The translations under genes and the position numbers were made by a program. A DNA stretch of 64,000 nucleotides from NCBI GenBank assembly GCA_948466335.1, contig CAOKAE010000001.1, positions 162,664 through 226,663 on the forward strand. Reading direction: 5' to 3'. This DNA comes from an uncultured Coriobacteriia bacterium (GTDB taxonomy: Bacteria; Actinomycetota; Coriobacteriia; Coriobacteriales; QAMH01). The notes under the pieces are model-generated. The model made no database searches. It had not been told where the DNA came from and worked only from the letters and a program-made list of their open reading frames with translations. Positions 33,001-61,680 of the stretch are shown piece after piece (position 1 is the first letter of the stretch; every line of letters starts with the position of its first letter).

Positions 33001-36000
33001 GGAACGGCAGTGAGAACTTCTACAACGCCACTTGGAACGCGGACAAGACGCAGGGTGTCGACAACACCGTCAAGACCGAGACGACGCTCACCGTTCCGAG
33101 CCGCGATTCCGCTTCGCGTCCGGGCTACACGCTCGTCGGATGGACGACGATTACCACCTACGACATCGTGGGCGGCAAGATCACCGCCGGCTCGCGTTAC
33201 AACATCGCCGACGCGACCGGCCAGACCGCACGCGACGTGGTCGCGTGGCTCGAGAGTCTCAACGCCGCGCTCGCCGCCAATCCCATCACGGGGGGGACAG
33301 ACCCCAACGCCGGACGCCAGTACTTCGCCTGCGGCACCTCCTTCGTGCTGCCGGCCGGTGGTGCGACGCTCATCGCCGTGTGGCAGGCCAACACCAACAC
33401 GACCTACACCGTCGAGCACCATAAGCTCGTGATGGATGCCGCCGGCAACGTCGTCGACACGATCGTGCTCACCGAGAGCCTCACCGGCATCACCGACGAG
33501 CAGGTCACGGGCATCGCCCAGACCTACGCCGGCTACACCTTCGTGGCCAACGGGCAGACGGCCTACCCCGGCCAGGCCTACGTGACCTTCGCCCAGGGCA
33601 CCATCGCCGGTAACGGCAGCCTCGTGCTCAAGCTCTACTACAAGGCCAACACCAATACGAAGTACACGGTCGAGCGCTGGATCGCGAGCGCCGATGGCAA
33701 GCAGCTCACCAAGGTCGACGAAAAGGTCCTGACGGGCACCACTGACACCTCCGTCACGCCCGGCTCCACCAATCCGCTGGGCTACACCCTCGACAACAGC
33801 TTCGTGCCCTCCACGATCTCGGGTACGGGCGCCTGGCCCAACGCGGCCATTCCGACCGCCATCATCGCCGGTGACGGCACCACGAGGATCATCCAGTTCT
33901 ACGTGCCCATCGACGTGCTCTACACCGTCGAGTTCTACCGCTACACCGGCGACGGCAAGGTCCTGCCCTTCAACGGCTTCGAGGCGAGCGCCGGCAAGAA
34001 CTACGCCGAGTTCATCGCCGGAGGGTCTGTCCCCGTCTTCATCGCCGGCACCTCCACCGGTGCGGCCACCAACGTGATCAAGGGCTGGGGCAAGACCTCC
34101 TCGACGCTGTCGGTCGACCGTCCCGCCGGCATCAGCGCCTCGGCCGGATTCACCTACGCGCACCTCAACCTCTCGGCTGCCGAGAACGCCAACTTCATCG
34201 GCTACACCTATGACGAGACCTTCGAGCAGGTCATCGGTGGCGTCACGTACAAGACGGTCGCCCAGGGCGTCATCCTCGCCGATGGCAGCCTGGTGCTGAA
34301 GCTGTTCTACGTGCCCGAGACGCTCTCGGTCACCTACAACACCGGCAGCGCCTCCACGACGGTCACCTTCCAGAAGAACCACACGTCGGAGTCGACCTTC
34401 AAGCTGCCCCTCGAGACCACCGAGGGTCCGGTCGTTGACCGCGCCGGATACACGCTGGTGGGCTGGACCGTCGCGAGCCACTACACCGGGTCGGGCACGG
34501 CCGAGAGCCCGTTTGCGCTGGCCGCCGCCAACGCCGCCGGCGCCAAGTCCATCAGCGCCGCCACCGGCTACGAGGCCCAGCGCCTCGCCGTCTGGCTCGC
34601 AACGCTGGGGACAGACCCCGACTTCGCAACGCATTGGGGACAGACCCTCACGCCCGACCTGGCCGCCCAGATGGGCAAGACCTACTACGCCCAGGGCTCG
34701 TCCTTCAAGATCGGCGTGCTGTCGATGAACCTGTACGCGGTCTGGACGCCCACGGGCACCACCGAGTACACGGCCGACATCTACAAGATCAAGGGCGACG
34801 GCACGATGGAGCTCGTCGGCACCAAGACCTACACCAACGGCGTTGCCGACGAGGACACCAACACGCTGGCCAAGCTGCCCGCCCAGAGCAGCGCGGACGT
34901 CTACGACAAGTCGCTCGACACCGAGTTTGGCCTGGCCGGCTATCGCTGGGTCGCCTCCACCGAGGATGGCCAGACCATCGACGCCGGCATGCCGGCCAAC
35001 ACCATCGCCCACGCCATCGTCAACGCTAACGGCACCACCAAGCTCATCTTCATCTTCAGGGCCATCGAGGTCGAGTTCCAGGTCAAGCGCTACCGCGTCG
35101 ACGGTGACGGCAACATCATCGAGGTCGATGTCGACGGCAATGACATCACCGACGATGCCACCGCCAAGCGCTTCACGCACAAGGGCCTCACCGACGCCAA
35201 CGTCAACGTGACCGCCACGGCCGATGACATGGCCGGCACCGACGCCAGTGGCTTCAAGGGCGGCTGGTACTACTTCATCGACAACCTCGACAATGTCGGC
35301 ATGGTCACCGCCCTCGACGGCAGCCTCATCGCGGCCTTCACCTATGACGCGACCTACGCCGGCAACCTGTCCACGGGCGTCATCGCCGGTGACGGCAGCC
35401 TCGTCCTCAAGCTCTTCTACCTGCCCGGCAACTTCACCTTCGCGCTGGATCCCGGCGCCGGCACGTGGGGGACGGACCTCTTCGACGCGGCCCAGACCCA
35501 GGAGGGCACGCTCGAGACCACGACGAGCATCTGGTATCGCCACTACGGCGCCAGCACCACCATCACGCTTCCCACGGCCAGCGAGCTCACGCGCGAGGGT
35601 TACGTGCTCGCGGGCTGGATGGTCGGCAACGACGTCGAGAACGCGATGCGCTTCGACGTGCTCGGCCCGGTCATCACCTACACTATGCCGGTGGGCGAGG
35701 TCATGCTCAGGCCGATCTGGACCGGCCTCGAGACGGCCTACATGGTCTACCACGTCAAGGTGCGCGGCGATGGCACGCTCGAGTACTACATCGGCTCCAA
35801 CAAGGTGGCCGCCGGTACCGGCGAGATCGTCCGCGGCACCACCGGCCTGACCGCACAGGTGACCGCCAACAGCTACGCCGGCTACGAGGCCATCGCCGAC
35901 CTCGTGAGCTACACCTACATCGGCGCCGACGGCGTCAGCCACACGGTCACGACGGCCGCCAACGTGCTCATCGAGTGGGGCGGTGCCTTCGACGGCGTCA

Positions 36001-39000
36001 ACAAGGGCAAGACCGCGGTCTACATCTACTACAAGCCGCTCGTCGTGAAGTACATGGTCGAGCACTGGGCCATCTCCGGCGACGGCACGCTCTACGCCAT
36101 CGATGCGGACGGTAACCTCCTGCGCGACGCCAACGGCAACCTCGTGGCGAGCCCCAACGCCGTGCGTGGCGAGCACGAGGGCTACTCCGACGCCCACATC
36201 TACGTCCTGGGGTCTGTCCCCGCTGATGCGGTCGCGGGCACCTACACGACCTACAGCCCCTGGAGCATCGCCGGTTACGAGTACGTGCTCGGCGCCATCG
36301 CGAGCATCAACGGCAAAGGCCCGTGGACCGACGGCATGCTGACGAGCGGCATCTACGTCGCACCCGACGGCACGCTCGTCCTCAAGCTCTACTACGTCGC
36401 CAAGAACCTGACGCTCACCTACGATCCGGGCGCCAACGGCTCCATCACCGCCGGTGGCAATCAGGGGACAGGCCCCGTCGATGTCACGCATCGCGCCGAC
36501 CACACCTTCAAGCTGCCCGCGGCCACCGACGAGAAGCTCACCGTGAGCCGTCCGGGCTACGTGCTCAAGGGTTGGACGACGCTCATGAGCTACGGCGTCG
36601 CCGCTGATGGCAGCATCGTCTCGGCCGATACCGCCGGCGCTATCGTCAAGCTCATCGCCGACGCCAAGGGCGCCGAGGCCGAGGCCGTCATCGCCTGGCT
36701 CGAGAAGCTGGGGACAGACCCCCAGGGCCGTCCGTACTACTACCTCAACGGCGCGACCTTCCTCATGCCCACCGCCAACGAGACCCTGTACGCGGTCTGG
36801 ACGCCGCGCTCCGACATCGTCTACACCGTCGAGCACTGGCTCATCACCGGCGATGGCACCTTCTCGCCGCTGGACAAGAACGGCAACGTCATTCGCGACG
36901 CCAACGGCGCGCTCGTCACCGGCACGCCCAACACGAGCGCCGATGCCTCCGACACCACCAACGCGGCCTACCGCGTCACCTACAACAACGGCAAGTCCGA
37001 CGTCGTCTTCGACCTCGACGCCATCGGCGGCTACGTCCGCACGGTCGCCGGCTACACCTACCTGCTCAACAACGCGAGCTTCACCATCGCGGGCGCGACG
37101 GGCACCACCTACGCCGTGAAGACGATCAGCGCCGACGGCAAGACGGTCTTCTACCTGTTCTACCGTGCCAACGAGAACACGATCCGCTTCGAGGTCGGCT
37201 CGCTCGGCACCATTGACGGCGGCACGCTCGACGCGACCGAGAACGTCAACTTCATCACGCAGAAGCACTACACCGACGACAGCTTCGACCTGGCAGACGT
37301 TCCCACCCCGACGCGTCCCGGCTACGACTTCCTCGGCTGGACCATCGCCGACAAGAAGGGGACAGACCCCATCAACGACGCGATGGGCTACACCGCCCAG
37401 CAGATCGTCACCTGGCTCGAGGCCCAGAACGCGGGCAAGGGGACGTACCTCAAGCTGTTCTTCAAGTCGGGCACGAACTTCACCTACCTCACGCCGACCG
37501 GCGACATCACCCTGCGCGCCGTGTGGACGCCGCAGCTCGTCGACTACACGATCAACCGCTGGAAGGTCACCGGTAACGGCGACAAGGTCGAGCTCGACTC
37601 CGTCACCTACAAGGGCTACGCCGATACCGAGGTCCGCTTCGACGCCGCCAAGACCGAGTACAAGGACGGCATCACCTACCTCAAGGTCGACGTGCCCACG
37701 GGCTATCGCTTCCTGGCCGCGGGCACGAGCGAGATCTACACCGGCACCAACAAGCTGACCCAGTCGTTCAGGACCGACGCCTACGGCAACGTCCTTCCCA
37801 ACGGCACGGCGAAGTTCACGCTCTGGTACCTGCCGAAGACCTTCAAGCTCGAGCTCGAGCTCGGCACCCTGGGCACCTGGAACGACACCACGACGGGCAC
37901 CAACACCGGCACGCTGAAGACCGTCGAGTATGACGCGGAGTCCGTCCACGAGATGCTCGGCTACCTCTCCGCGAGCCGTCCGGGCTACACGCTCGTTGGC
38001 TGGTCGTCCAGCGACTTCAGCGCGCTCAAGGGAGAGGCGTCGCAGGCCAAGTGGCTCGAGCTCGCCGCCTCGGCCGTCGGCGCGGACTGGGTGCGCGTCA
38101 CCACGGTCCTGAAGTCCGACGCCACGGGCACGTCGCTAACCGGCTACACCTACGCCTACATCGCCAACAGCTACGAAAACATCAAGTACATGTACACGAT
38201 GGGCCTCGCGGGCGTGAAGTTCTACGCCGTGTGGCGCGCCAACGACGACACGGTCTACTACGTCGACCACGTCCGCTGGGAGGGCAACAGCACCGCCAAG
38301 ACCACCATCACCGAAGAGTTCCGCGGCATGACCGACAAGAACTACACGGCCGCCCCGTTCAACACCATGCTCGCCGATCCGCGCTACAACACCAGCTTCA
38401 CCGGCTACGGCTACAACGGCACGGATCCCAAGCCCAGCACGGCCACGAAGGCGGTCACCGGCGACGGCACCATGCGCATCACGCTCAACTACTTCGCCCA
38501 GAAGCTCAACCTCACGCTCGAGTCCACCGGCGGCACCTGGTCGACGACCTGGAATCCCGAGCACCTGACCGAGTCGAGCTTCAACCTGCCGACCAACGCC
38601 GACATCAAGCGCCCGGGCTACACGCTCGTGGGCTGGTCGACCACCAATCCCGACGATGGCCTGACCGGCAACATCAAGGGCCTCGCCTCGCAGGTCAAGG
38701 CCGGCCAGCTCGCGGCGATCACCGGCAACGACACCGCCAACGGCGGCGCCAACTGGATCACGGTCGCCACGACCTCCGACGGCAAGACCTACGTCTTCGT
38801 CACGCCGGGCTACAAGATGCCAACGAGGGGACAGACCCTGTACGCCGTCTGGTACGCCAACAACGACACGAAGTACGCGGTCGAGCGTTGGGTCGTCTCC
38901 GGTGACGGCGTCCGCTACGCCCTCAAGGCCGACGGCACGCTCGAGCGCGATGCCAACGGCCTGCTCGTGACCAGCGACAAGGCCGACAGCGCCCATTCGC

Positions 39001-42000
39001 TGAGCTACGTGGGCACCACCGACGAGGAGGCGTGGGCCGACGCCATCGATGGCTCCATCGTCTACCGCACGAACGACACCCTGCTCACCATCACTGGCTA
39101 CGCCTACGCCGCCGATGGCGAGACGATCGTCGCCAAGGACGGCGTCGTGACGATCGGGGGACAGACCCTCAAGACCGACGCCCGCGCGACCATTACCGGC
39201 GACGGCAAGATGACCCTCGTGCTCTACTTCAAGCCGCTGCAGTTCACGCTCGACTTCTACATCGGCGCGACGAGCACGCCCAACCTGAGCGCCACGCCGG
39301 CACGGGCCACGCTCTATGCCGACCAGACCTACACGCTGCCCACCTCGACGGTCACGCGTAGCGGCTACACGCTCAAGGGCTGGACGAACAGCCAGTACGC
39401 GAGCACTGTCGATGCGGCCACGATCATCTCCGACCTCAAGGGCATCAAGTCCCAGAACGCCTACACGGCCGTGAGCGCCAGCACGGGCCGCGATGCTGTG
39501 ACCGGCAAGGTCTTCACCGCCGTGACAAGCGGGGGACAGACCCTCTACATCATGCCGACGGGCAACGTGACGCTCTACGCCACCTGGCGCGCCAACGACG
39601 ACACGCAGTACCTTGTCGAGCGCTGGGTCGTCTCCGGCGACGGCACCCGCTATGCGGTCACCTCCGATGGCAAGCTCGTCCGCGATGCCAACGGCAAGCT
39701 CGTGACCAGCTCGGCTGCCGATGCGAACCACGTCGTCAAGCACGTGGGCATCACCGATGAGGAGGCCTGGGCCGACGCGAACGTGGCCGGAACGAGCTAC
39801 CGCAACGACGATTCCGCGCTCACCTTCGCCGGCTACGCCTTCGCGGCCAACGGCGAGACGGTCATCGCCAAGGACGGCGCGACCGCCTTCACCACCATCG
39901 CCCGCAAGGTCATCACCGGCGACGGCAAGATGGTCCTCGTGCTGTACTACAAGCCCAAGCTCAACACCATCACCTTCAACTTCGGCAGCGGCACGAGCAC
40001 CGGCGCGCCCGCGACGATGCAGGTCTACACCGACCAGACCGTCGAGCTGTCCGCCGATGCCGAGCGCACGGGCTACGACCTGGTCGGCTGGTCCAACGTC
40101 CCGACCTACAGCGTGAAGGTCGACGGTGCCGCCACGGCCGCGACCGTCAACGTCGGCACCTCCAAGGGCCTGGCTTCCCAGGCCGCCGCTGATGCGGCCA
40201 AGGCCAACACCAAGCGCACCTCCGACAAGGGCGCCGCCTTCACCGCCGTGACGATCGGGGGACAGACCCTCTACATCATGCCGACCGACGCGAGCATCAC
40301 GCTCTATGCCACCTGGCGCGCCAAGTCCGACACCGTCTTCTACGTCGACCGCTACAAGGTCACCGGTGACGGCGTGGTCGTGCCCATCGACGCGAACGGC
40401 AAGGACCTCGCGGCCCTCGTCTCGCTGCGCTTCACCGGCGTCACCGACGAGACCGCCACCGCCGGCGCCAAGAGCGGCCCGAAGCCCTGGAACACCGCCG
40501 CCTACGGCGCCCTGGCCGGCTACTACACGATCGCCAACGGCACGAGTGACCGCGTCATGCTCAAGGACGGCAGCGGCTACGTCGTCATGACCACCATCAG
40601 CGCCGGCGTCATCGCCGGTGACGGCAGCCTGCACCTCGTCGTCTACTACTTCCCGCTGGCGGACCGCGTCCTCGACCTCGACGTCGGCGACGGCACCTGG
40701 GAGCCCGGCAAGGAATCCCAGTACAGCGGCAACAAGCACGCCACCGAGTCGAGCTTCACGCTGCCCACCAACGCCGACGTCAAGCGTCCGGGCTACACGC
40801 TCGTGGGCTGGGCCATCGACAAGAACGGCCTCATGGCCGCCGGAAAGGACACCGCCAAGGGCGCGGCGTCGCAGCAGTCCTACCTCACGCTCGCCGCCGG
40901 CAAGACCGGCTACATCGCCGATGGCGGCGCCGAGTGGATCGCCGTGATCTCCGGCTACGATGCGTCGACCTTCACCTACACCTTCATCGGTGCCGATGAC
41001 GTCATCTACGTCATGCCCACGAACGCCAAGGTCATGCTGCGTGCCGTGTGGCGCGCCAACGACAACACGCCGTACTACGTGTCGCGTTGGGGCATCAACG
41101 GCGACGGCGTCGCCTTCCCGTTCAAGCAGGACGGCACGGTCGACATGAACGGCGACCAGATCGTGATCCATGACGATCCCGCGTGGATCAAGGCCAACTA
41201 CGTCGTCCATTACGGCATCACCGACGAGATCGCCTGGGCCGATGCGAACGTCGACGGCGTCTCCTACCGCAACGCCGACAACATCGAGGTGAACGGCTAT
41301 AGGTACCTCCCGACCGACGATCCCGCGTTCGACTCGATCGGCGGCAACCTCAACACGATGGCCCGTGCGGTCATCAAGGCCGATGGCAGCATGGTGCTCA
41401 TGCTCTACTACAACGCCAAGGACAACATCACCTACTCCGTCTACCACGTGCGCGTCACCGGTGACGGTACGGTCAAGAACCTCGTCAAGCAGGAGTTCAT
41501 GAAGAAGAACAACTCCTACGTCACCGTCGACAACCTTGATTACAACGGCCTCGACGACAGCCGCTTCCTCGGCTACGAGTACGTCGACTCCATCGTCATC
41601 AACGGCGTCACCTACTACTCGCATATTGCCGGTAACGTCTACGACGGCCTCATCCTGTATCGCTACTACAAGGCCATCTACGACGAGGGCGACAAGGGCA
41701 TCCACCTCGAGCTCAATCCCGGAATGGGCATCTGGGTGAACACCGGCGAGTCCACGCCGTCGATGATCCCCGGCACCTCGAACAGCTCGCACGACACCTT
41801 CGCCGCCGAGACCACGATCACGCTTCCGGGCGCCGACCAGCTCTACCGTCCCGGCTACGAGTTCGTCGGATGGTCCGACATGCCCGACGGTGCGGATGCG
41901 AAGGGCAACTACTCCGTGATCACGTCCGACCACCTGATGAGCGTCGATCCCGAGACGGGCCAGTACACCGACGTGCTGCGCGCCCTCATCATGAGCCTGC

Positions 42001-44116: not shown

Positions 44117-44214
44117 GGGGACAGACCCTCCGCTTCATCCGCCGGCGAAAGAATGGGGACAGACCCTCCAATTGCAGCTTCCGTATCCGCCGGTGAAAGA
44201 ATGGGGACAGACCC
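44117..44214 (+). repeat. REP-like array, 3 forward copies, starting 21 nt after the giant-gene stop
   Basis: Cores at 44117-44128, 44155-44166 and 44203-44214. The 30-nt units 44137-44166 and 44185-44214 (atccgccgg[c/t]gaaagaatGGGGACAGACCC) differ at one base. Confidence 0.9.
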
Positions 44215-45032: not shown

Positions 45033-45073
45033 CGTGCCATCAACCAGGAGTCTCAAATGGGGGTCTCAAATGG

Positions 45074-45130
45074 GGGTCTGTCCCCCTATTGCCACCTGCC
45101 AGCCGAAGCCTTGATCGGGGGTCTGTCCCC
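45074..45130 (-). repeat. REP-like pair, 2 reverse copies upstream of the RAYT-type gene
   Basis: GGGTCTGTCCCC at 45074-45085 and 45119-45130. Both are followed by the reverse complement of the second arm (ctattgcca / tcattagca). They are preceded by a 13-nt tandem partial duplication at 45051-45076. Confidence 0.9.
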
Positions 45131-45299
45131 TCATTAGCATCGGGGCAGTGGAGGCATGGCCGTATCTGCATTTACTCGGAAACCGCTCCGTTTCCACTTC
45201 GATTGATGTCCGAGATTGCTCAGATTCCCGGGGTGGTTTGCTCGGATGTTTCCGATGTAGTCTGTTTCCGCAGAAGACCTGACGGAAAGGAGGTGCAGT

Positions 45300-46097
45300 G
45301 TGCCGCGCCAGCCACGCAGACAATCGTCAACCGGGTATTACCACATCACGAATCGCGGCGTTGGCAAAGCGCGCGTCTTTAGCGACGGCAACGACCACTC
45401 GTTTTTCATAGATTGCCTGCGACTTGCGCAGCGGGTCTGTCACTTCAGGGTTCTCGCATATTGCATAATGACCACGCATTTCCACATCGTCATCAAGTGT
45501 GAGGGCGCCGTTCCAACACCCCTTTTCCAGAGCATAGGAGCACGATTCTCGGCCTATTACCATAAGAGGCACAAATGCTCTGGGCAAATATTCCAGGGTC
45601 GTTTTCGCAGCGAGGCCATCGAGACGGACAGGCACCTTCTCTCTGCGATTCGCTATGTATGGCGCAATCCCGTCAAGGCCCACCTCTGTTCCTACCTGGC
45701 CGCCTATCCGTGGAGTAGCTACAATTGCCTGGGCAAATCGGGTGGCTTGATCGACGACGAGCTCCTTTGCAGCTTCATGAGTGCCGATGAGTGGCGGGCC
45801 TTTGCGTTGCAGGAGACGGACGGCCGTCATCTCGAGCCCTTCCCTCTGCGACTGTCGGACAGTTTCGCTCGGAAACTGGTCCGTGAGGAATGTCGACAGT
45901 TTGGCGATGTGCCGAGGGATGCTCTTGAGAAACCAGAATGCCCTCCTGCACTTGCTATGTGCTTGGATGCGGGGATGACCGTGGCGCAGATTGCCAGAAT
46001 CCTGAACATCGCCGCAACTGGTATGTATCGTGCATTGCGTAAATGGGGTCGGCAGGTTCCGAGGGCATGCACTCTCGAAGCGTCGAGTAGTCCGTAA
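45300..46097 (+). CDS. IS200/IS605-like HUH Y1 transposase of the REP-associated tyrosine transposase (RAYT) type, with a C-terminal HTH extension
   Basis: GTG start 6 nt after AAGGAGG (45287-45293). N-terminus PRQPRRQSSTGYYHITNRG..RVF...DHSFFIDCL. HUH motif in VLAYCIMTTHFHIVIK. GQIFQGRFRSEAIETDRHLL. Catalytic-Tyr motif AIRYVWRNPVKAHL...YPWSSY. C-terminal MTVAQIARILNIAATGMYRALRKWG looks like an HTH. Confidence 0.85.
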   Translation: MPRQPRRQSSTGYYHITNRGVGKARVFSDGNDHSFFIDCLRLAQRVCHFRVLAYCIMTTHFHIVIKCEGAVPTPLFQSIGARFSAYYHKRHKCSGQIFQGRFRSEAIETDRHLLSAIRYVWRNPVKAHLCSYLAAYPWSSYNCLGKSGGLIDDELLCSFMSADEWRAFALQETDGRHLEPFPLRLSDSFARKLVREECRQFGDVPRDALEKPECPPALAMCLDAGMTVAQIARILNIAATGMYRALRKWGRQVPRACTLEASSSP

Positions 46098-47528: not shown

Positions 47529-47614
47529 GGGGACAGACCCTCTTGTGCCGTACGTAATAATTCGGGGACAGACCCCCGACAATAGGAGGATACCGACAAT
47601 AAGGGGACAGACCC
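47529..47614 (+). repeat. REP-like array, 3 forward copies
   Basis: Cores at 47529-47540, 47564-47575 and 47603-47614. The third has the arm ccgacaataa. Confidence 0.9.
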
Positions 47615-47731
47615 CCGAATTCGACCCCCGAATCCCCGCCCTCAAGCCCTCTCGAGCTCATGGGATGGCCGTCTCCTCCGCATTGTCGCGCTGGGTATAA
47701 TTGCCTCGACAAAACCGTTTCGAGGAGACCG

Positions 47732-48561
47732 ATGTCCGCCCAAACTCCAGATGAGAAGTACGACGCCTTGGTCATTCGCCTTCGTTCCCTCAAAAACGTG
47801 GCGGTCGCCTTTTCGGGCGGCGTTGACTCCACGTTGTTACTGCACGCCGCGCACGAGGCGCTTGGCGATAGGACGGTTGCGATTACGGCGCGATCGCGCC
47901 TTTTCCGCAACGCGAACTCGACGAAGCCGTTGCGTTTTGCAATGACCGCGACATTCCGCACGTCATCGTCAACACGCACGAGCTCGAAGACGAGATGTTC
48001 CGGCAAAATCCGCCCAATCGTTGCTATATCTGTAAAACGGGGCTACTGCGCGCCGTTATCGACGTCGCGAACGGGCGCGGGGTCGACCATATCGTCGAAG
48101 GGTCTAACACTGACGACGAGAGCGACTATCGTCCAGGTGCGCAGGCAATACTCGAGCAGGGGGTGATGAGCCCGCTCAAGGACGCTGGTCTTTCAAAGCG
48201 CGAGATACGTGATTTGTCGCGAGAGAAGGGTCTTCCCACCTGGAGCAAACAGTCATTTGCGTGTCTTGCCTCGCGCTTTGCGTTCGGTGAGGTCATTAGC
48301 GAGGAGCGCCTTGGCATGATCGACGCAGCGGAGCAGATTCTTCTCGAAAGGGGAATTCGACAAGTTCGCGTGCGCTTTCATGGGGCAATCGCGCGTATCG
48401 AGGTGCAGCCGGATGATTTCGCGCATCTTGTCGATTCGGATGTTCGAGAGGATGTTATCCGAAACATCAGGGCGCTTGGATTCAAGTATGTGACGCTTGA
48501 CCTTGGAGGCTACCAGACAGGCAGCATGAACATGACAATTGGGGGACAGACCCTCAACTGA
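47732..48561 (+). pseudogene. LarE-like PP-loop ATP pyrophosphatase / sulfur transferase (COG1606 type) interrupted by a -1 frameshift
   Basis: The upstream frame (ATG 47732, RBS GAGGAG) gives VAVAFSGGVDSTLLLHAAHEALGDRTVAITARSRLF. The downstream frame, open from 47872, gives PFPQRELDEAVAFCNDRDIPHVIV...NPPNRCYICK...DYRPG...FACLASRF...VRVRFHGAIARIEV...YVTLDLGGYQTGSMN. Adding one C at about 47905-47906 (ttcc_gcaa) fuses both frames into a 276-aa protein. Confidence 0.8.
48542..48553 (+). repeat. REP-like copy forming the last codons of the larE-like gene
   Basis: catgacaattgGGGGACAGACCCtcaactga is translated MTIGGQTLN-stop. Both the arm and the core are present. Confidence 0.9.
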
Positions 48562-48752
48562 GATTCCCAACTGAAATCTCCAGTTGAGCCCCCATTAAGC
48601 GGGTTCCAATTACCCGGGAGCCCACCCTCCCACCTTTGGCCGGTGTGCCGGCTTCGCTCCCCGTCGTTCTCAATCGCGCTCGACCGCGCAAGCCTGTGAC
48701 CGATGTCCTATACTTGCAATCAATCTATCTATCGTTTGCACAAGGAGAGCTC

Positions 48753-49172
48753 ATGAGCGAATCACGCGCAGGTTGGTATCCGGATCCTTCGGGTAATCCG
48801 TCGAAGCTTCGATACTGGGACGGAAGCCAGTGGACCGATGACTATGCGGATAGCCCCTCGAATGCGCAGGATACGCCGGCATCCGAAGAGGCCCTATGCC
48901 AGGTGCAGGCTGTCGATAGCGCGCAGGTTTCATACGGCATGACCTCGCAGGACTCGACGCTGCGCCTCATCGCTTTCGTTTTCTGCCTCATTTCCACTGT
49001 GACGGCGGGATGGATGCTCATTCCTTTGGCGTGGATGATTCCGATGTCCGTACATGCTTGGGGAATTTACAAAGGAAAAAAGCCGAACACCGTCGCATTT
49101 GGCGTGTGTACGCTGATTTTCGTGAGCCTCATAGGCGGCATACTGCTCCTCGTTTCCAAAAAGGACGCCTAG
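48753..49172 (+). CDS. DUF2510-domain membrane protein (hypothetical)
   Basis: ATG 48753 follows AAGGAGAG. N-terminus GWYPDPSGNPSKLRYWDGSQWTDDY (DUF2510-type motif). The C-terminal half has hydrophobic helices (LIAFVFCLISTVTAGWMLIPLAWMI, AFGVCTLIFVSLIGGILLLV). The ORF-track start 48636 is probably an extension. Confidence 0.6.
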   Translation: MSESRAGWYPDPSGNPSKLRYWDGSQWTDDYADSPSNAQDTPASEEALCQVQAVDSAQVSYGMTSQDSTLRLIAFVFCLISTVTAGWMLIPLAWMIPMSVHAWGIYKGKKPNTVAFGVCTLIFVSLIGGILLLVSKKDA

Positions 49173-49207
49173 CTTCATTCCGCAAGATGATGGGTGGGTG
49201 ACAAGAG

Positions 49208-49328
49208 GGGGACAGACCCCCTCTTCGTGCTGGCCCCCCATCCCGCGCACCTCCAAGCGCCTGCTCGACTTGGGGCCGAGCAATCGCGCGTTGCGGTTCT
49301 CCCTGCGTAACAATATGGGGACAGACCC
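49208..49328 (+). repeat. REP-like copies, 2 forward
   Basis: Cores at 49208-49219 and 49317-49328. The first sits in a 9-bp perfect palindrome, aagaggggg-ACAGA-ccccctctt (49203-49225), with the arm gtgacaag. Confidence 0.9.
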
Positions 49329-50774: not shown

Positions 50775-50813
50775 GCGCCGAAGGGGGTCCGCCTCCTTCG
50801 GCGCCTTCTTTTT
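50775..50813 (+). terminator. Rho-independent terminator after tig
   Basis: GCGCCGAAGG (50775-50784), a 10-nt loop, CCTTCGGCGC (50795-50804), then cttcttttt. Confidence 0.8.
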
Positions 50814-50824
50814 GATGGCAGCCG

Positions 50825-50969
50825 GGGGACAGACCCTTCCATACCATCGCAGGCGAAAACCGGGGGACAGACCCCTAACTCCGACTCCGGGGTCCCATTC
50901 GTGACAGCTAGGGGACAGACCCCGCGAACCGATTCCATGAGCCGACCCCGCAAATCGGGGGACAGACCC
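50825..50969 (+). repeat. REP-like array, 4 forward copies
   Basis: Cores at 50825-50836, 50863-50874, 50911-50922 and 50958-50969. Spacings are 38, 48 and 47 nt. Confidence 0.9.
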
Positions 50970-51984: not shown

Positions 51985-52047
51985 GGGTCTGTCCCCGGAT
52001 TATCAACATCATCCCATGGCGAAGGTCGTGACGAAGGGTCTGTCCCC
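51985..52047 (-). repeat. REP-like pair, 2 reverse copies in the divergent intergenic region
   Basis: GGGTCTGTCCCC at 51985-51996 and 52036-52047. Confidence 0.9.
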
Positions 52048-52079
52048 CTTCTTCCCAGAGAGACATTCAGGAGGAAATC

Positions 52080-53363
52080 GTGATTCGAAACGTCGATGGT
52101 GATTCCGGCGCAAGCGAAGGTGCGCGGAGGTACCAGAATCCGGTGCTCGTGGGCATCGTCTTGCTCGTATCCGGAATATCGGTGGCGATGATCCAGTACA
52201 AGGTCCCCACCATCATGACGAATCTCATGGGCATCTTCTCGATGGATGCGGCGACAGCCTCGTGGCTCATGTCGGTCTTCACGCTCGTGAGCATCTTCGT
52301 CGCGTTGCCCGCGGGCGCCCTTGCACAGCGTTTTGGCGCCAGGCGGATGCTCGTTGTCGCATGTGGCATCGTCATCCTCGGTTCGCTTGTCGGCCTTGTC
52401 TCCGAAACGAGCCCGATGCTCATCGTTTCGCGGGCGATCGAAGGCGCCGCGCTTACCATCCTCACGACATGCGGGCCGATTATCGTTCAGCAGAACGTGA
52501 GTCCCGAGAAGGTCGGCACCTCGATGGGCATCTGGGGCATCTGGGGATGTCTCGGGTCCACCGTCGCGGCCGTTCTCACGCCGACCGTTTTCGGCATGTG
52601 GGGATTTGACGGCCTCTGGATCGCGTTTGCCGTGGTCAGCGGCGTTGCGGCTGTCCTCGTCCTGGTCTTTATCCGCAAGCCTCCGTCCGCCCCTGCAGCG
52701 CCCGAGGGTCTGTCCCCCGATCGCCATGCGCCCCAGGGGTCGTCTCAGGGGTCTGTCCCCGCAATGTCAGGTGAGGCAACGATTGTCGAGAAGCCTCGCT
52801 ATCGCGACATGTTCTCCAAAGACATGTTCCTGTTCTTCGGGGCCTTCGTTGTCTACAACATCTGCATGCTCGCGATTCTGGCGTTCGTCCCCACGATTCT
52901 GCAGATGCAGGGCTTCGACCCGACGCTCTCGGGCATCATCAGCACGGCGCCCATGTTGCTCTCGATCATATCGTCGCCGCTCTTCGGAGTCGTCTCCGAC
53001 AAGATCGGCCGCAACAAGCCGCTGCTGATCATCGCCATGCTCGTCATGGGTCCCTGCACGTTTTTGCTCTACACGCAGACCGGGCCGTTGCTCTGGGTGG
53101 GCGTCTTCGCGATGGGACTGCTCGGCATGGGCGGCATCGGCCAGTATCTCTCGGGATTCACGAAGCTGCTGCCGAGTCCCGACCTCGCGTCGGTGGGCAT
53201 GGGAGTGCTCGTCACGTTTCAGGGCGTCGGTCAGTTCCTCGGCACGTTTTTCGTGCAGATGCTTCTGGGGCCGCAGCTGACCGAATGGTGGTTTGCCGGC
53301 ATGGTGCTCATGCTTCTCGGCTTCGTCGGCACGGCGCTCATCGCCCTGTGCAAGCTACGGTGA
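52080..53363 (+). CDS. MFS transporter
   Basis: GTG 52080 follows AGGAGGA. 427 aa with about 12 hydrophobic helices in two halves. MFS loop motif ALPAGALAQRFGARRM between helices 2 and 3. Confidence 0.85.
   Translation: MIRNVDGDSGASEGARRYQNPVLVGIVLLVSGISVAMIQYKVPTIMTNLMGIFSMDAATASWLMSVFTLVSIFVALPAGALAQRFGARRMLVVACGIVILGSLVGLVSETSPMLIVSRAIEGAALTILTTCGPIIVQQNVSPEKVGTSMGIWGIWGCLGSTVAAVLTPTVFGMWGFDGLWIAFAVVSGVAAVLVLVFIRKPPSAPAAPEGLSPDRHAPQGSSQGSVPAMSGEATIVEKPRYRDMFSKDMFLFFGAFVVYNICMLAILAFVPTILQMQGFDPTLSGIISTAPMLLSIISSPLFGVVSDKIGRNKPLLIIAMLVMGPCTFLLYTQTGPLLWVGVFAMGLLGMGGIGQYLSGFTKLLPSPDLASVGMGVLVTFQGVGQFLGTFFVQMLLGPQLTEWWFAGMVLMLLGFVGTALIALCKLR
52706..52760 (-). repeat. REP-like doublet (reverse) translated inside the MFS central loop
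   Basis: GGGTCTGTCCCC at 52706-52717 (read as GLSP) and 52749-52760 (read as GSVP). The reverse complement carries the arm ctgacattgc. Confidence 0.9.
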
Positions 53364-53369
53364 CAATGC

Positions 53370-53416
53370 GGGGACAGACCCCTGGCTGTCCGGACTGACA
53401 ATGAGGGGACAGACCC
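53370..53416 (+). repeat. REP-like doublet (forward) immediately after the MFS stop
   Basis: Cores at 53370-53381 (arm gtgacaatgc) and 53405-53416 (arm ctgacaatga). Confidence 0.9.
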
Positions 53417-53720
53417 TCGGATCGCCCCTCGATCGCCCCGCTTGCATTTGGACGCTTCTCACCATCTTTTCACCTGCGCGTTTGCCGCACATATCACATG
53501 CGTCATACTTTTTATACGATGGTTTCACCTTCCCTCAGACGATATATTGAAACCGCAAGTAGGGGGTTGTGTCGATGCATCATGTGCGCTGTGTCTCTCG
53601 TGGTCGCGGGGAGTCGCAATGCCGTCACGCGGGCCACGCCCTTCATCAAAAACGCCACTCTCCGGGGGGGGGTGCACTCGCAGTGCATGCAGTGCGCTGT
53701 GCGAGTCAAGGGGGCGTGTC

Positions 53721-55241
53721 ATGGGGGAAGTAGTACCAGAGCGGGAAGCCGAACAAACCGCGGAGCGCAAGCCAATCGGCGGCAACGAGGCAGATTTCGA
53801 GGCCGTCCTCATCGACGGCATACTCGGCTTCAGCCTTTCTCTCGGCAACGCCATCCTATTGCTGGTCGGGGCGGTGACGCATGCCGGCTCCTTCTTCGAC
53901 TCCGCGGTCATCACCGTTATCGCCGCTCTTGTGTCCGCGGCCTTCTTCAAGATCGTCCAGCTCAAGACCGATGCAATCTCCCGGCGCCTTCCGCGTGTCG
54001 CCTTCGTATGCGGTCATGCGGTGTGCTTCCTCGTCGCCATCGTCGGCATGTACCTGGGGCTCCAGTACCTTATCGCCGTGGCCGCGGCGCTTGGCCTGGC
54101 TGACACCCTCATCCTCTACGGGCGATTTCTCGCGGCACTCGCCCGCAAGGCCCTCATGCTCGTCGTGGATGCGGCCTTTCTGTACCCTGGCATCATGCTG
54201 ATGGTCATAGTCAACGTGCCGTGGCCCTATGACACGGTCATTCTCTCGGCCATGGTGCTCGTCACGATCGTCGTCGCCCTTCTCTTCATCCGGCGAAACT
54301 ACGACTTCGGAGAACTCATCAGTGCCGCCGATTCGAAGGCGCGCAGCATCAAGGCCAAAGGCAATGTCCATACGCTCTTCCTCGTCGGCTTCATGATCAG
54401 TGCGTTTCTGCTCTTCAACTCGCTGCCGTTTACCCTGGAAATATCGAACACCGCGCTGGGCCTGGCCTTTGCGCTTGCGGGTATCGGATCGCTGCTCATG
54501 CGCCAGATCAACGAACGCGGCACGAAAGATGCGATGCGCAAGACCACGGGACTCGCCTCCCTCGTCTTGCTCCTGCCGCTCATGCTCGTTCCCGGCGAGA
54601 TACAGCTCGTGCTGCTCGCGTGCTATAGCTGCTATGTCGTTCTCGAGACGCTGACCATACTCGACGCGATCGTCGAGACCGTCCGCTTCAACCTCATCGC
54701 GGCCATGTGGCTCATCGGTAAGGAATGCTCGGTATTCTTTGGCGGCATAGCTGCGGGTGGAGCGATATTTGCGCTGTTTCCCTGGATCGCCCGCGTGCTA
54801 GGTCCCGAATACGCCATGCTCATCCTGTGCATCGTGGTGGCCGCGTTTTGCGCGTGGCTGCAGATAAAGGTCAACTACCAGGTCTACCCCTATGAGCCCA
54901 TCATCGAGGAGGAGGTTGACGAGGAGGTGACCGCGCGCATCGAGCGCAACGGTCGTCGCAAGGACCTCTGGCATCAGAAGATTGATGCCGCCTGCGAGCA
55001 ATATCGCCTGTCACCTCGCGAACGCGAGATATTGCCCATCCTGCTGAGGGGCCGCGACGCCAAGTACATCATGGACACCTTCTACATCTCGCAATCCACG
55101 GCCAAGACGCACATATATAACATCTACCGCAAGTTCGGCATCCATTCGCGCCAGGAGCTTCTCGACTTCGTCGAGGACATCGAGTTCATGGAGCTTGAGA
55201 TGCCCGATGAAGCGGAGCGCCCAGACGATTCCGCGCAATAG
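53721..55241 (+). CDS. LuxR-family transcriptional regulator with an N-terminal multi-pass membrane domain
   Basis: ATG 53721 follows AAGGGGG. About 8-10 hydrophobic helices, then a C-terminal GerE/LuxR HTH (LSPREREILPILLRGRDAKYIMDTFYISQSTAKTHIYNIYRKFGIHSRQELLDFV). The ORF-track extension from 53442 is Cys-rich and unlike a protein. Confidence 0.8.
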   Translation: MGEVVPEREAEQTAERKPIGGNEADFEAVLIDGILGFSLSLGNAILLLVGAVTHAGSFFDSAVITVIAALVSAAFFKIVQLKTDAISRRLPRVAFVCGHAVCFLVAIVGMYLGLQYLIAVAAALGLADTLILYGRFLAALARKALMLVVDAAFLYPGIMLMVIVNVPWPYDTVILSAMVLVTIVVALLFIRRNYDFGELISAADSKARSIKAKGNVHTLFLVGFMISAFLLFNSLPFTLEISNTALGLAFALAGIGSLLMRQINERGTKDAMRKTTGLASLVLLLPLMLVPGEIQLVLLACYSCYVVLETLTILDAIVETVRFNLIAAMWLIGKECSVFFGGIAAGGAIFALFPWIARVLGPEYAMLILCIVVAAFCAWLQIKVNYQVYPYEPIIEEEVDEEVTARIERNGRRKDLWHQKIDAACEQYRLSPREREILPILLRGRDAKYIMDTFYISQSTAKTHIYNIYRKFGIHSRQELLDFVEDIEFMELEMPDEAERPDDSAQ

Positions 55242-55242
55242 G

Positions 55243-55391
55243 GGGTCTGTCCCCTTATTTTTCCCTTCGCATTTCCCCCGGCTGACAATCAGGGGACAGA
55301 CCCTCACGCATCATGCTGACAGTCGGGGGACAGACCCCGTCGTGTCCCGTCGTGTCGACATGCCCGCGTTTGACAGCCGGGGGACAGACCC
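55243..55391. repeat. REP-like cluster: 1 reverse copy then 3 forward copies
   Basis: Reverse copy at 55243-55254, 2 nt after the luxR-type stop. Forward copies at 55292-55303 (arm ctgacaatca), 55326-55337 (ctgacagtcg) and 55380-55391 (ttgacagccg). Confidence 0.9.
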
Positions 55392-60399: not shown

Positions 60400-60521
60400 G
60401 GGGACAGACCCTCACGCATCACGAACGTCGCGGTTGGCAAGAAGGGGACAGACCCTTTCGTAAGAAGGCGGGGGACAGACCCCTTCGCGCCAACCGCAGG
60501 TGAGAAAGAGGGGACAGACCC
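60400..60521 (+). repeat. REP-like array, 4 forward copies between the Fe-S and chaperone genes
   Basis: Cores at 60400-60411, 60444-60455, 60471-60482 and 60510-60521. The 22-mer gataggcgggggacagaccctc (60392-60413) is identical to 44109-44130. The 22-mer ggggacagaccctcacgcatca (60400-60421) is identical to 55292-55313. Confidence 0.9.
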
Positions 60522-60560
60522 CCACGCGTCATCCGCGAAGCGAGCGAGGACGGAATTTCG

Positions 60561-61268
60561 ATGGACCAGCAGGCTCTGATGCAGCAAACCGAAGACAGGT
60601 GCGACAACTACGCGATGCTCTCGCGCCTGTTCAGAAGCGAGCTCGATCGCGAGCTCATCGCCGATCTCGTCGAAAGTCCGGCCGCTGAGCCGACGGGCAA
60701 CACGCTCTTCGACTCGGGCTACGCACGCCTGCGTTCGTACCTTGACGCCGTCGACGATCTCGATCGTGCCAAGTCGGCGCTTGCGATTGACTACTGCCTC
60801 GCGTTCCTCGGCTACGGGGTCGACCCCGAGAAGGCGGACGAGGCCGGCAGGAATGCCGCCTATCCGTACGAGTCGATCTACCGCACGGGCGCCAAGTCTC
60901 TCGGCGGCGACCACTGCGCCGAGGTCTCCGACGTGTTCCGCTCCTGCATGTTCATGCCCACCCGCGACCGCCTCATCGCCGAGGACCACATCGCGTGCGA
61001 GCTCGAGTTCATGCAGTTCATGGCCAACAGCGAGCTCGTCGCCCTGCGCGATGGCGAGCTTGCGGCCGTGCGTGGCACGCAGAAGAAGGAACTCGAGTTC
61101 CTGGAGGGCCATATGCTCGCGTGGACGGAGAGCTTCAGGCAGGCGGTGGAGCAGTTCGCCGAGACGGACTTCTACATCGGTCTGCTCGAAATGACGCAGG
61201 GTTGGCTCGAACTGGACGCGGAATACCTGCGCGAGGCATGCGCGGGCGAGGGGGAGGATGCATCATGA
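60561..61268 (+). CDS. TorD/DmsD-family redox-enzyme maturation chaperone
   Basis: 235 aa, helical. N-terminus YAMLSRLFRSELD, then AAYPYESIYRTG (a YESVY-like motif of the family). It lies next to molybdoenzyme genes. Confidence 0.7.
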   Translation: MDQQALMQQTEDRCDNYAMLSRLFRSELDRELIADLVESPAAEPTGNTLFDSGYARLRSYLDAVDDLDRAKSALAIDYCLAFLGYGVDPEKADEAGRNAAYPYESIYRTGAKSLGGDHCAEVSDVFRSCMFMPTRDRLIAEDHIACELEFMQFMANSELVALRDGELAAVRGTQKKELEFLEGHMLAWTESFRQAVEQFAETDFYIGLLEMTQGWLELDAEYLREACAGEGEDAS

Positions 61269-61585
61269 CGACCGACCACGGCCCGGACGGGCGCAACTGG
61301 AACAAGAACGAGGTTGAGTATGACCTCGGCGTCGCCGGCCCCGGCCAGAGCATCGTCATAACCATCACCCGTTCCGTCGCGGTCAAGATCATGGACCACG
61401 ACAGCTACGAGCTCTACAAGGCGGGCGAGGACTGCAAGGCCTTCTCGGGCCAGCTCACCTCGTCGCCGTACCGGTTCAAGCTGCCGCGCGAGGCACGATG
61501 GCACGTGATCATCAATCCCCACACCTATTCGGGCACCGCCGAATTCAGCGTTCGTCTCATCGACGACGAGGTGCTCGACGGCTAG
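61265..61585 (+). CDS. DUF1883-like small protein
   Basis: ATGA overlap with the chaperone stop. 106 aa. YDLGVAGPGQSIVITITRSVAVKIMDHDSYELYKAGEDCKAFSG...SPYRFKLPREARWHVIINPH..SGTAEFSVRLI matches my recollection of the DUF1883 pattern (YDLG...V.V.L...A.V.LMD..N...Y..G....Y.GG...SP..L.IP..G.WHVV.D). Confidence 0.55.
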   Translation: MTTDHGPDGRNWNKNEVEYDLGVAGPGQSIVITITRSVAVKIMDHDSYELYKAGEDCKAFSGQLTSSPYRFKLPREARWHVIINPHTYSGTAEFSVRLIDDEVLDG

Positions 61586-61595
61586 GGGGAAATCG

Positions 61596-61680
61596 GGGGA
61601 CAGACCCTCGATTGCCGTCGGTGACAAAGAGGGGACAGACCCCCATCGACCACCGCCGGTGACAAGTGGGGGACAGACCC
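61596..61680 (+). repeat. REP-like array, 3 forward copies between the DUF1883-like gene and the second molybdoenzyme
   Basis: Cores at 61596-61607, 61631-61642 (arm gtgacaaaga) and 61669-61680 (arm gtgacaagtg). Confidence 0.9.

Follow-up and report, generated by a model that had tools for sequence, protein, structure and literature searches.

A REP-like repeat family associated with a TIRYT-type transposase gene accounts for repeat cores in and after an MFS transporter gene of an uncultured Coriobacteriales bacterium

A transporter gene of an uncultured Coriobacteriales bacterium (MEI3376909.1) raises the question of why one short DNA word stands twice within its coding sequence and twice more, in the opposite orientation, directly behind it. 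The gene (52080-53363, + strand) lies in a stretch of 64,000 nucleotides (nt) of contig CAOKAE010000001.1, here called the window, and encodes a 427-amino-acid (aa) protein of the major facilitator superfamily (MFS; Pfam MFS_1, E value 6e-46) that bears two in-frame repeat units in its central loop (residues ~198 to 240). The word, the 12-mer GGGGACAGACCC, occurs exactly at 52706-52717 and 52749-52760 on the - strand, within the open reading frame (ORF), and at 53370-53381 and 53405-53416 on the + strand, where the cores begin 7 and 42 nt past the stop codon. An earlier note on this DNA had given flanking strings around the four cores, which read as quoted, and had described the arrangement as one two-copy unit present twice in inverted orientation. 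We found that the four cores are ordinary members of a repeat family of the REP-like (repetitive extragenic palindromic) kind that is associated with TIRYT transposases. We hold it probable, with good confidence, that this is the repeat family of the TIRYT-type transposase encoded at 45300-46097, that the in-gene pair is a loop insertion, and that the pair behind the gene arose independently.

Allowing up to one mismatch, the 12-mer has 48 matches in the window, 47 of them exact, compared to 0.61 expected from dinucleotide-preserving shuffles of the window. Alignment of all copies gave the full unit TGACAR-N3-GGGGACAGACCC-Y, about 22 to 31 nt long, with TGACAR at positions -8 to -3, three free bases and the invariant 12-mer; position 13 of the core is C or T in every window copy, and position 14 is usually C. 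Together with position 13, the core reads as a near-palindrome, GGGGAC-A-GACCCC, with one A·A mismatch, and the 13-nt core forms only a 4-bp hairpin as a single strand (-2.9 kcal/mol). The downstream arm weakly mirrors the upstream arm, and some copies form perfect stems of 12 to 13 bp, most clearly in the related locus L001 (TGGCAATNN-core-NNATTGCCA). All window copies lie at or beyond position 31565, at a density of ~1.5 per kb across at least 32 kb, with 38 of the 47 on the + strand versus 9 on the - strand. Fifteen are inside a giant ORF, and the other 32 mostly form direct clusters of two to four copies spaced 27 to 54 nt. Clusters occupy 11 of the 15 intergenic slots between 44.1 and 61.7 kb, mostly after + strand genes. 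None of the six frames of the 12-mer contains a stop codon, and therefore the family could enter permissive coding DNA; the coding copies read GTDP, GQTL, GSVP, GLSP and GDRP, with five of the six frames used across the window. This distribution suggests a family that has filled most of the intergenic spaces here and has entered coding DNA where it is permissive.

In the MFS gene, the first unit (52702-52726, - strand) has the weak left arm TGGCGA and reads GLSP, while the second (52746-52770, - strand) has the left arm TGACAT and reads GSVP; the two cores are read in different frames, and the protein contains ...APEGLSPDRHAPQGSSQGSVPAMS... in its translation. The Pfam match and an AlphaFold model agree with the class features of an MFS transporter (two halves with 12 transmembrane helices in all and a central cytoplasmic loop between them). 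The model (mean predicted local distance difference test [pLDDT] score, 83.6) places helical bundles on either side of residues 198 to 240, which have no secondary structure and a pLDDT below 50 at 205 to 235; the flanking helices span residues 155 to 197 and 241/247 to 276. The element-encoded residues (~209 to 227) fall within this disordered loop and outside the transmembrane helices, as the earlier note had supposed. Shorter loops elsewhere, which it had proposed to look for, were found as well. The loop measures 38 aa in the window and 34 aa (L087, same species), 40 aa (L001), 33 aa (L092) and 62 aa (L002, with four loop cores) in related carriers of the repeat, versus 19 aa in L085, where the loop holds no exact core, and 21 aa in the core-free outgroup L091. 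The element-free relatives do not share the loop sequence, and GLSP and GSVP are missing from all more distant MFS orthologues examined. Since the segment neither recurs in relatives lacking the element nor lies in a transmembrane helix, its reading as a tolerated insertion in coding DNA stands; the ORF is intact. Two antisense units would thus have entered the loop between the six-helix halves in frame, adding about 19 residues and leaving the helices untouched.

The same data bear on the possibility that GLSP and GSVP are a low-complexity repeat at the peptide level or a chance match. Loops of MFS transporters are often of low complexity and variable in length, and in the related locus L090 a 38-aa loop (10616-10729) occurs without an exact copy. 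However, the two MFS cores are in different frames, and therefore the constraint acts on DNA and not on the peptide. The cores are identical in four lineages, while the loop DNA between and around them can barely be aligned, so that the core DNA stays exact as neighboring loop codons diverge. The use of five frames by the coding copies and the excess of 48 matches over 0.6 expected effectively refute a peptide repeat or a chance match. The L090 loop does hold two antisense near-matches, GGTTCTGCTCCC with three mismatches and TGCGCTGTCCCA with four; they could be decayed copies but are too weak to be claimed as such. Insertion of repeats into coding DNA has been documented for Rickettsia palindromic elements and for intragenic REPs of the GTAG/CGTC type (Di Nocera et al. 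2013, PMC3733652). The MFS loop resembles these cases in that a short palindromic repeat is read as extra residues at a permissive site of an intact protein, and dual inserts are known. It differs in that another family is involved and in that a doublet of 12-nt cores is read in two frames within an MFS central loop. The MFS insertion adds little beyond this known tolerance of repeats in protein loops.

Behind the gene, the first unit (53361-53384, + strand) has an arm, TGACAATGC, that overlaps the MFS stop codon (TGA, 53361-53363), and the core of the second (53396-53420, + strand) is followed by an imperfect tandem duplication (CCCTCGGATCG / CCCCTCGATCG). The inverted arms and the spacing of about 610 nt in the earlier description are real: 52746-52769 is 96% complementary to 53361-53384 over 24 nt, 52702-52726 is 84% complementary to 53396-53420 over 25 nt, and the inner cores stand 609 nt apart, enclosing MFS residues ~228 to 427. 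That the doublets are one shared unit is, however, not supported. Their similarity does not go beyond the family consensus, their spacers (31 and 23 nt) cannot be aligned, and the best pair of an in-gene and a post-gene copy shares 11 of 20 flanking bases, which ranks it 109th of 1,081 copy pairs. The two doublets might still act as a functional pair, either by forming a long-range RNA duplex around the C-terminal half of the mRNA or by flanking, as recombination arms, a 609-nt segment that could invert or be deleted. In favor of such a pair, the arms are complementary to the extent given above, the in-gene (-) plus post-gene (+) layout recurs in L087, L001 and L092, and the minimum-free-energy fold of the RNA from 52690 to 53430 pairs both doublets (z = -4.4, from only 20 shuffles). 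Pairing of the doublets in a read-through transcript is thus thermodynamically possible in the model, with no sign of selection for it. The post-gene cluster, on the other hand, counts two copies in the window, four in L087 to L089, three in L001, two in L092 and none in L002; therefore, the bracket is not a conserved structure. The spacing of the in-gene cores also varies (43, 31 and 37 nt), with four in-gene copies in L002, and a duplex within the coding region would be melted by translation. The earlier note had also considered the inverted pair a possible substrate for inversion or hairpin formation; although the doublets do pair in silico, all eight related contigs had the native orientation and no inverted isoform was seen among them. 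A metagenome scan with a degenerate pattern for the native junction and for the predicted inverted junction found neither, and as the organism is absent from that collection, the scan says nothing on inversion. We consider a functional pair very unlikely. The post-gene doublet is an independent cluster of the same repeat family as the in-gene doublet, and the inverted relation looks like an incidental by-product of orientation.

The gene at 45300-46097 (+ strand) encodes a 265-aa Y1 HUH transposase of the RAYT/TIRYT type (RAYT, REP-associated tyrosine transposase) with an HUH motif (H60-F-H62), the catalytic Tyr119 and a putative C-terminal helix-turn-helix (HTH). An alignment of 23 homologues shows no variation at H60, H62 or Y119. 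The NCBIfam model REP_Tyr_transpos matched the protein over the full profile (E value, 9e-20) with 71 bits, just below its 80-bit cut-off, and the match to Pfam Y1_Tnp was weak. A sequence search against the Protein Data Bank (PDB) gave only an E value of 0.32 to 4er8, and therefore a fold search was needed to confirm that match. With the AlphaFold model (pLDDT, 79.8; C-terminal helices at residues 187 to 249) as a query, the best Foldseek match in the PDB was 4er8_A, the E. coli TnpA_REP with its REP hairpin (E value, 5e-7; template modeling score normalized to the target, 0.73), followed by the transposases of IS608, ISDra2 and IS200. The matches of the HTH are weak (HTH_7 with an E value of 5e-4 in the window protein, HTH_23 in four homologues and HTH_28 in one); in TnpA_REP subclass 2.1, this extension is of the Bac_DnaA_C, HTH_23 or HTH_28 type. 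The length of 265 aa fits the subclass. The gene is present as a single copy at a conserved syntenic site in seven lineages and looks domesticated. Two repeat cores, at 45074 and 45119 (45074-45130, - strand), stand 170 to 225 nt upstream of it, and three + strand cores follow the next gene, moeA (47529-47614); the latter form inverted arms with the copies at 45059-45147 (21 to 33 nt, 79 to 95% complementary) that enclose the transposase gene and moeA.

The link between gene and repeats was followed in related loci. The gene order of giant gene, 217-aa gene (p217), transposase gene, moeA, ..., tig, FKBP gene, small ORF, MFS gene and LuxR-type gene is kept in L087, L088 and L089 (all of the same species as the window), L001, L092 and L002, and its transposase-moeA part in L003 and L004; all of these syntenic loci carry repeats. 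Exact copies number 14 to 38 in the carrier loci, with 38 in 21 kb of L087, and the core remains exact even where identity of the transposase is as low as 60%. The L003 transposase is 52% identical; its locus is without the window 12-mer and holds 17 copies of GGGGTCAGACCC instead, with the upstream arm at the same position, and these fill the same kinds of slots as the window repeats. L085 and L090, in contrast, have no transposase gene between p217 and moeA, ~1.1 kb of the window at this site corresponding to ~108 nt in L085, and each holds one exact copy in 21 kb. A moeA tree places L085 and L090 within the carrier clade, in which L002, L003 and L004 are deeper branches; in an MFS tree, L085 is nested inside the carriers and L090 falls outside L002. 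Loss of the gene in the L085/L090 lineage would be the parsimonious reading of these trees. Decayed relics in L085 were not clearly above chance (six matches at up to two mismatches versus 2.1 expected).

The association extends well beyond the order. A profile scan of genome contigs listed at least 80 distant homologues from many phyla, with at most 39% identity to the window protein. De novo counts among the matches listed show an excess of words such as GGGGAC(A/G)G or GGGGTCAG near many of them, and at such loci repeat copies of the GGGGAC/GGGGTC type adjoin the gene on both sides in inverted orientation. Among the matches listed, the flanking inverted repeat carries GGGGWS[AG]S in 42 of the 71 distant loci with enough flank. 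Repeats of Collinsella begin with ATTGGGGACAGAC and share 10 of the 12 core bases. We further examined at least 120 metagenomic stretches (L093 to L212; GC content, 0.37 to 0.77) that had been picked only for an exact doublet of the core. A transposase homologue is encoded in 17 of 120 (14%, among the matches listed), which is far above the expectation for a gene at about one copy per genome. Cores stand on both sides of the gene in at least seven stretches, including L121, L139, L159, L177 and L190. Of the 437 metagenomic copies among the matches listed, 94% have C or T at position 13, and the arms are lineage specific. Some metagenomic contigs contain tandem arrays of a whole 17-nt unit (GGGGACAGACCCCGGGT repeated).

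These data also speak to whether the 12-mer is a DNA uptake signal or a recognition sequence of the Chi or KOPS (FtsK-orienting polar sequence) type that is unrelated to the transposase. An exact 12-mer at ~1.5 per kb with degenerate flanks, coding copies in several frames and a strand bias of 38 to 9 would suit such a signal, and the DNA uptake sequences (DUS) of Neisseria and the uptake signal sequences (USS) of Pasteurellaceae share with the window an exact 10- to 12-mer at about one per kb, a weaker flank consensus and tolerance in coding DNA. DUS and USS have no associated transposase, are lineage specific and often form inverted pairs in terminators. The window motif, in contrast, accompanies RAYT-type genes across many unrelated taxa, occurs in tight direct arrays spaced 17 to 50 nt and, unlike lineage-specific uptake sequences, is the same 12-mer in contigs whose GC content spans the range given above. 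Loci without the transposase gene at the syntenic site have almost no copies of it, and 14 kb of a conspecific genome has none. An uptake or recognition signal independent of the transposase is therefore extremely unlikely.

A search of the window against Rfam at the gathering threshold matched nothing, and a full-text literature search for the 12-mer returned unrelated primers only. The closest known system is that of Di Nocera et al. (2013, PMC3733652), who described RAYT-like genes flanked by terminal inverted repeats (TIRs) with GGGGWSAS, introducing the name TIRYTs for the proteins and TIRtrons for the units. Some of these repeats, in their account, are also dispersed as families of moderate abundance that occur in dimers or clusters. 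Quentin et al. (2018, PMC6006769) classified TIRYTs as TnpA_REP subclass 2.1, with a C-terminal HTH and the flanking consensus GGGG[AT][CG]A[CG]. The window core begins with GGGGACAG, an exact fit to GGGGWSAS, and the sister lineage has GGGGTCAG; the enzyme likewise is a Y1 HUH transposase, with a putative C-terminal HTH, and the repeats are also dispersed as singles, dimers and clusters (47 exact copies here and 14 to 38 in related loci). In contrast to the moderately abundant published families, the density reaches ~1.5 per kb over at least 32 kb, and a conserved core of 12 to 13 nt in direct arrays takes the place of a long TIR. Further differences are the 3′ arm lying beyond moeA (matching arms of 21 to 33 nt), the copies inside genes and the uncultured Coriobacteriales host. 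The REP/RAYT and REPIN systems (Nunvar et al. 2010, PMC2817692; Bertels and Rainey 2011, PMC3116915; structure 4ER8 of E. coli TnpA_REP, PMC3479197) resemble the window in their single-copy, syntenic and vertically inherited Y1 gene with lineage-specific short palindromic repeats mostly after genes, in the best fold match (4er8_A) and in the scarcity of repeats in loci without the gene at the syntenic site. They differ from it in that the window consensus lacks a GTAG or CGTC tag, the stem of the core has only 4 bp, the enzyme has a putative additional HTH domain and its score is 71 versus the 80-bit cut-off. Compared to REPINs, the window clusters are direct with variable spacers, and the one inverted pair, 609 nt apart, is not conserved. 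The window family is thus a new member, of unusual density, of the TIRYT-associated REP-like kind, which is known but has hardly been studied.

A large fraction of RAYT-like genes encodes TIRYT or subclass 2.1 Y1 transposases, yet in the literature searched only two papers, both cited above, deal with them. The most useful outcome of the locus is the contrast between relatives with and without the transposase gene at the syntenic site: gene carriers keep dozens of exact cores per 20-kb syntenic block, whereas the nested clade without the gene keeps one, and the sister lineage has a core switched by one base. The lineage is suited to asking whether TIRYT enzymes create or maintain the repeats and where they cut. 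For annotation, the repeats explain GTDP, GQTL, GSVP and GLSP inserts in many proteins as well as inflated intergenic regions.

As to how the copies arise, the transposase may recognize the core as a single-stranded DNA hairpin, GGGG-ACAGA-CCCY, and/or via its HTH, nick it, and thereby create or maintain copies; local tandem duplication would let clusters grow and shrink. Existing clusters do differ between contigs of the same species (3 versus 5 copies after the giant gene, 2 versus 4 after the MFS gene and 3 versus 4 after the LuxR-type gene). In the Coriobacteriales loci, a perfect tandem duplication of 8 to 15 nt abuts the core in 12 of ~133 copies, and 8 of these duplications begin at core position 7/8 (GGGGACA|GACCC-X GACCC-X), compared to ~0.08 expected. 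Perfect or near-perfect duplications of 10 to 15 nt that begin at core position 7/8 lie at 45059-45085, 47603-47630, 55326-55355 and 53405-53440 of the window, and at L001 17969, L002 5204 and 10046, L003 1964 and 12357, and L092 5637 and 11353. The duplicated sequence X differs among lineages at one and the same slot, including the last post-MFS copy in L001 and L092, and is imperfect at window position 53405. A nick within the small hairpin's loop and slipped resynthesis after it would fit the pattern. The metagenomic set, which is of mixed taxonomy, did not clearly show it. A bolder extension sees in the family more than a passive REP-like parasite and has the HTH-bearing Y1 enzyme nick the core within the loop (GGGGACA|GACCC), build direct arrays by local resynthesis and continually re-create exact cores at set places between genes, so that the arrays would be maintained genome punctuation that vanishes without the gene. 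It draws on the position-7/8 duplications, the exactness of the core across deep divergence and the joint loss of gene and repeats, and it predicts a nick at ACA|GA in the core-bearing TGACAATGCGGGGACAGACCCC. IS608-type enzymes cut outside the hairpin. We regard this extension as quite unlikely.

Alternatively, the arrays could be a domesticated system that benefits the host, as binding sites of the transposase-like protein with its HTH or as terminator, insulator or mRNA-end elements, with the in-loop copies as a spill-over. Such a role would explain the exact conservation of the core, which persists with a transposase only 60% identical, and the placement after genes, where 11 of 15 slots are filled; the single-copy gene at one syntenic site in seven lineages points in the same direction. 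So does the cluster after the LuxR-type gene (55243-55391; a - strand core at 55243 followed by + strand cores at 55292, 55326 and 55380), whose first copy yields a terminator-like hairpin and T tract at the LuxR-type stop codon, and the copy at 49317, which together with its flanks has persisted upstream of tig even in loci without the transposase gene. However, canonical intrinsic terminators precede the clusters after tig (four + strand cores at 50825-50969, downstream of the terminator at 50775-50804) and after p217. Because these terminators precede them, the two arrays probably lie outside the mRNAs, past the likely transcript ends. Moreover, relatives manage without nearly all copies, and the copies at 45074 and 45119 are antisense to both of their neighboring genes. 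A host-beneficial role as the main explanation therefore seems doubtful, though it has to be taken seriously. The antisense copy at 55243 sits inside an extended palindrome (AATAGGGGGTCTGTCCCCTTATT, 55237-55265) followed by the T tract, and it looks like an intrinsic terminator made from a repeat unit. The 49317-49328 copy lies ~110 nt upstream of tig in a conserved stretch (GTAACAATATGGGGACAGACCCCGCATTC...TTTATTCAGTTCGTCATATAGTGTGCACG) and is the only one retained in L085 (at 7584) and L090 (at 8171); it could be a founder copy or could have been exapted as part of the sequence upstream of tig. A promoter function of the repeats, based on the resemblance of the arm to a -35 TTGACA-like element, was rejected, as a promoter scan found no excess; a CRISPR-like reading was rejected as well.

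Returning to the assignment of the cores to the TIRYT-type transposase, several points weigh against it. Quentin et al. (PMC6006769) saw no classical REPs beside subclass 2.1 genes, and we found no biochemistry for TIRYT or subclass 2.1 transposases in the literature. The units form direct arrays and not the inverted doublets (REPINs) typical of RAYT systems, and no core lies directly 3′ of the transposase gene, the nearest downstream copies being past moeA. Arm complementarity within copies is no better than in chimeras of different copies, with no covariation for a long hairpin, and locally the doublets and one cluster of four copies fold as DNA no better than shuffles do (z = -0.8 to +0.5); the requirement for a hairpin is therefore unproven. 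Clusters occupy the same slots across relatives, and between close strains only expansions and contractions, and no clear insertion at a new site, were observed. The case for co-loss of gene and repeats comes from a single evolutionary event. Finally, a 14-kb region, L086, from the same assembly as L087 (GCA_949879855.1) is without the 12-mer even at up to two mismatches; with 38 copies in 21 kb of L087, the family is therefore spread unevenly along the genome. The L086 region holds AbiE toxin-antitoxin, Fic and ABC transporter genes.

The remaining copies of the window follow the same layout. The giant ORF (39-44096; 14,685 aa), presumably that of a surface protein, has no cores in its first 31.5 kb and 15 in its last 12.5 kb (31565-43006), 13 sense and 2 antisense, which read GTDP, GQTL or GSVP; in L085 and L090, Radical_SAM-WYL-WYL genes stand where the window has the giant gene. 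Three + strand cores follow its stop codon (44117-44214). Single + strand cores lie at 48542, 49208 and 49317 (48542-49328), and the molybdopterin oxidoreductase operon contains two clusters of four and three + strand cores between + strand genes (60400-61680). The divergent region that precedes the MFS gene holds two - strand cores (51985-52047). In a 97%-identical relative (protein P0002), the MFS gene was called with a 17-aa N-terminal extension (MAKVVTKGLSPFSQ...) that runs through the upstream repeat copy (window 52016-52080); this is probably an annotation artifact arising from the stop-free repeat. In the window, the MFS gene starts with GTG at 52080, preceded by GGAGG as its ribosome-binding site, whereas the ATG farther upstream is not in frame.

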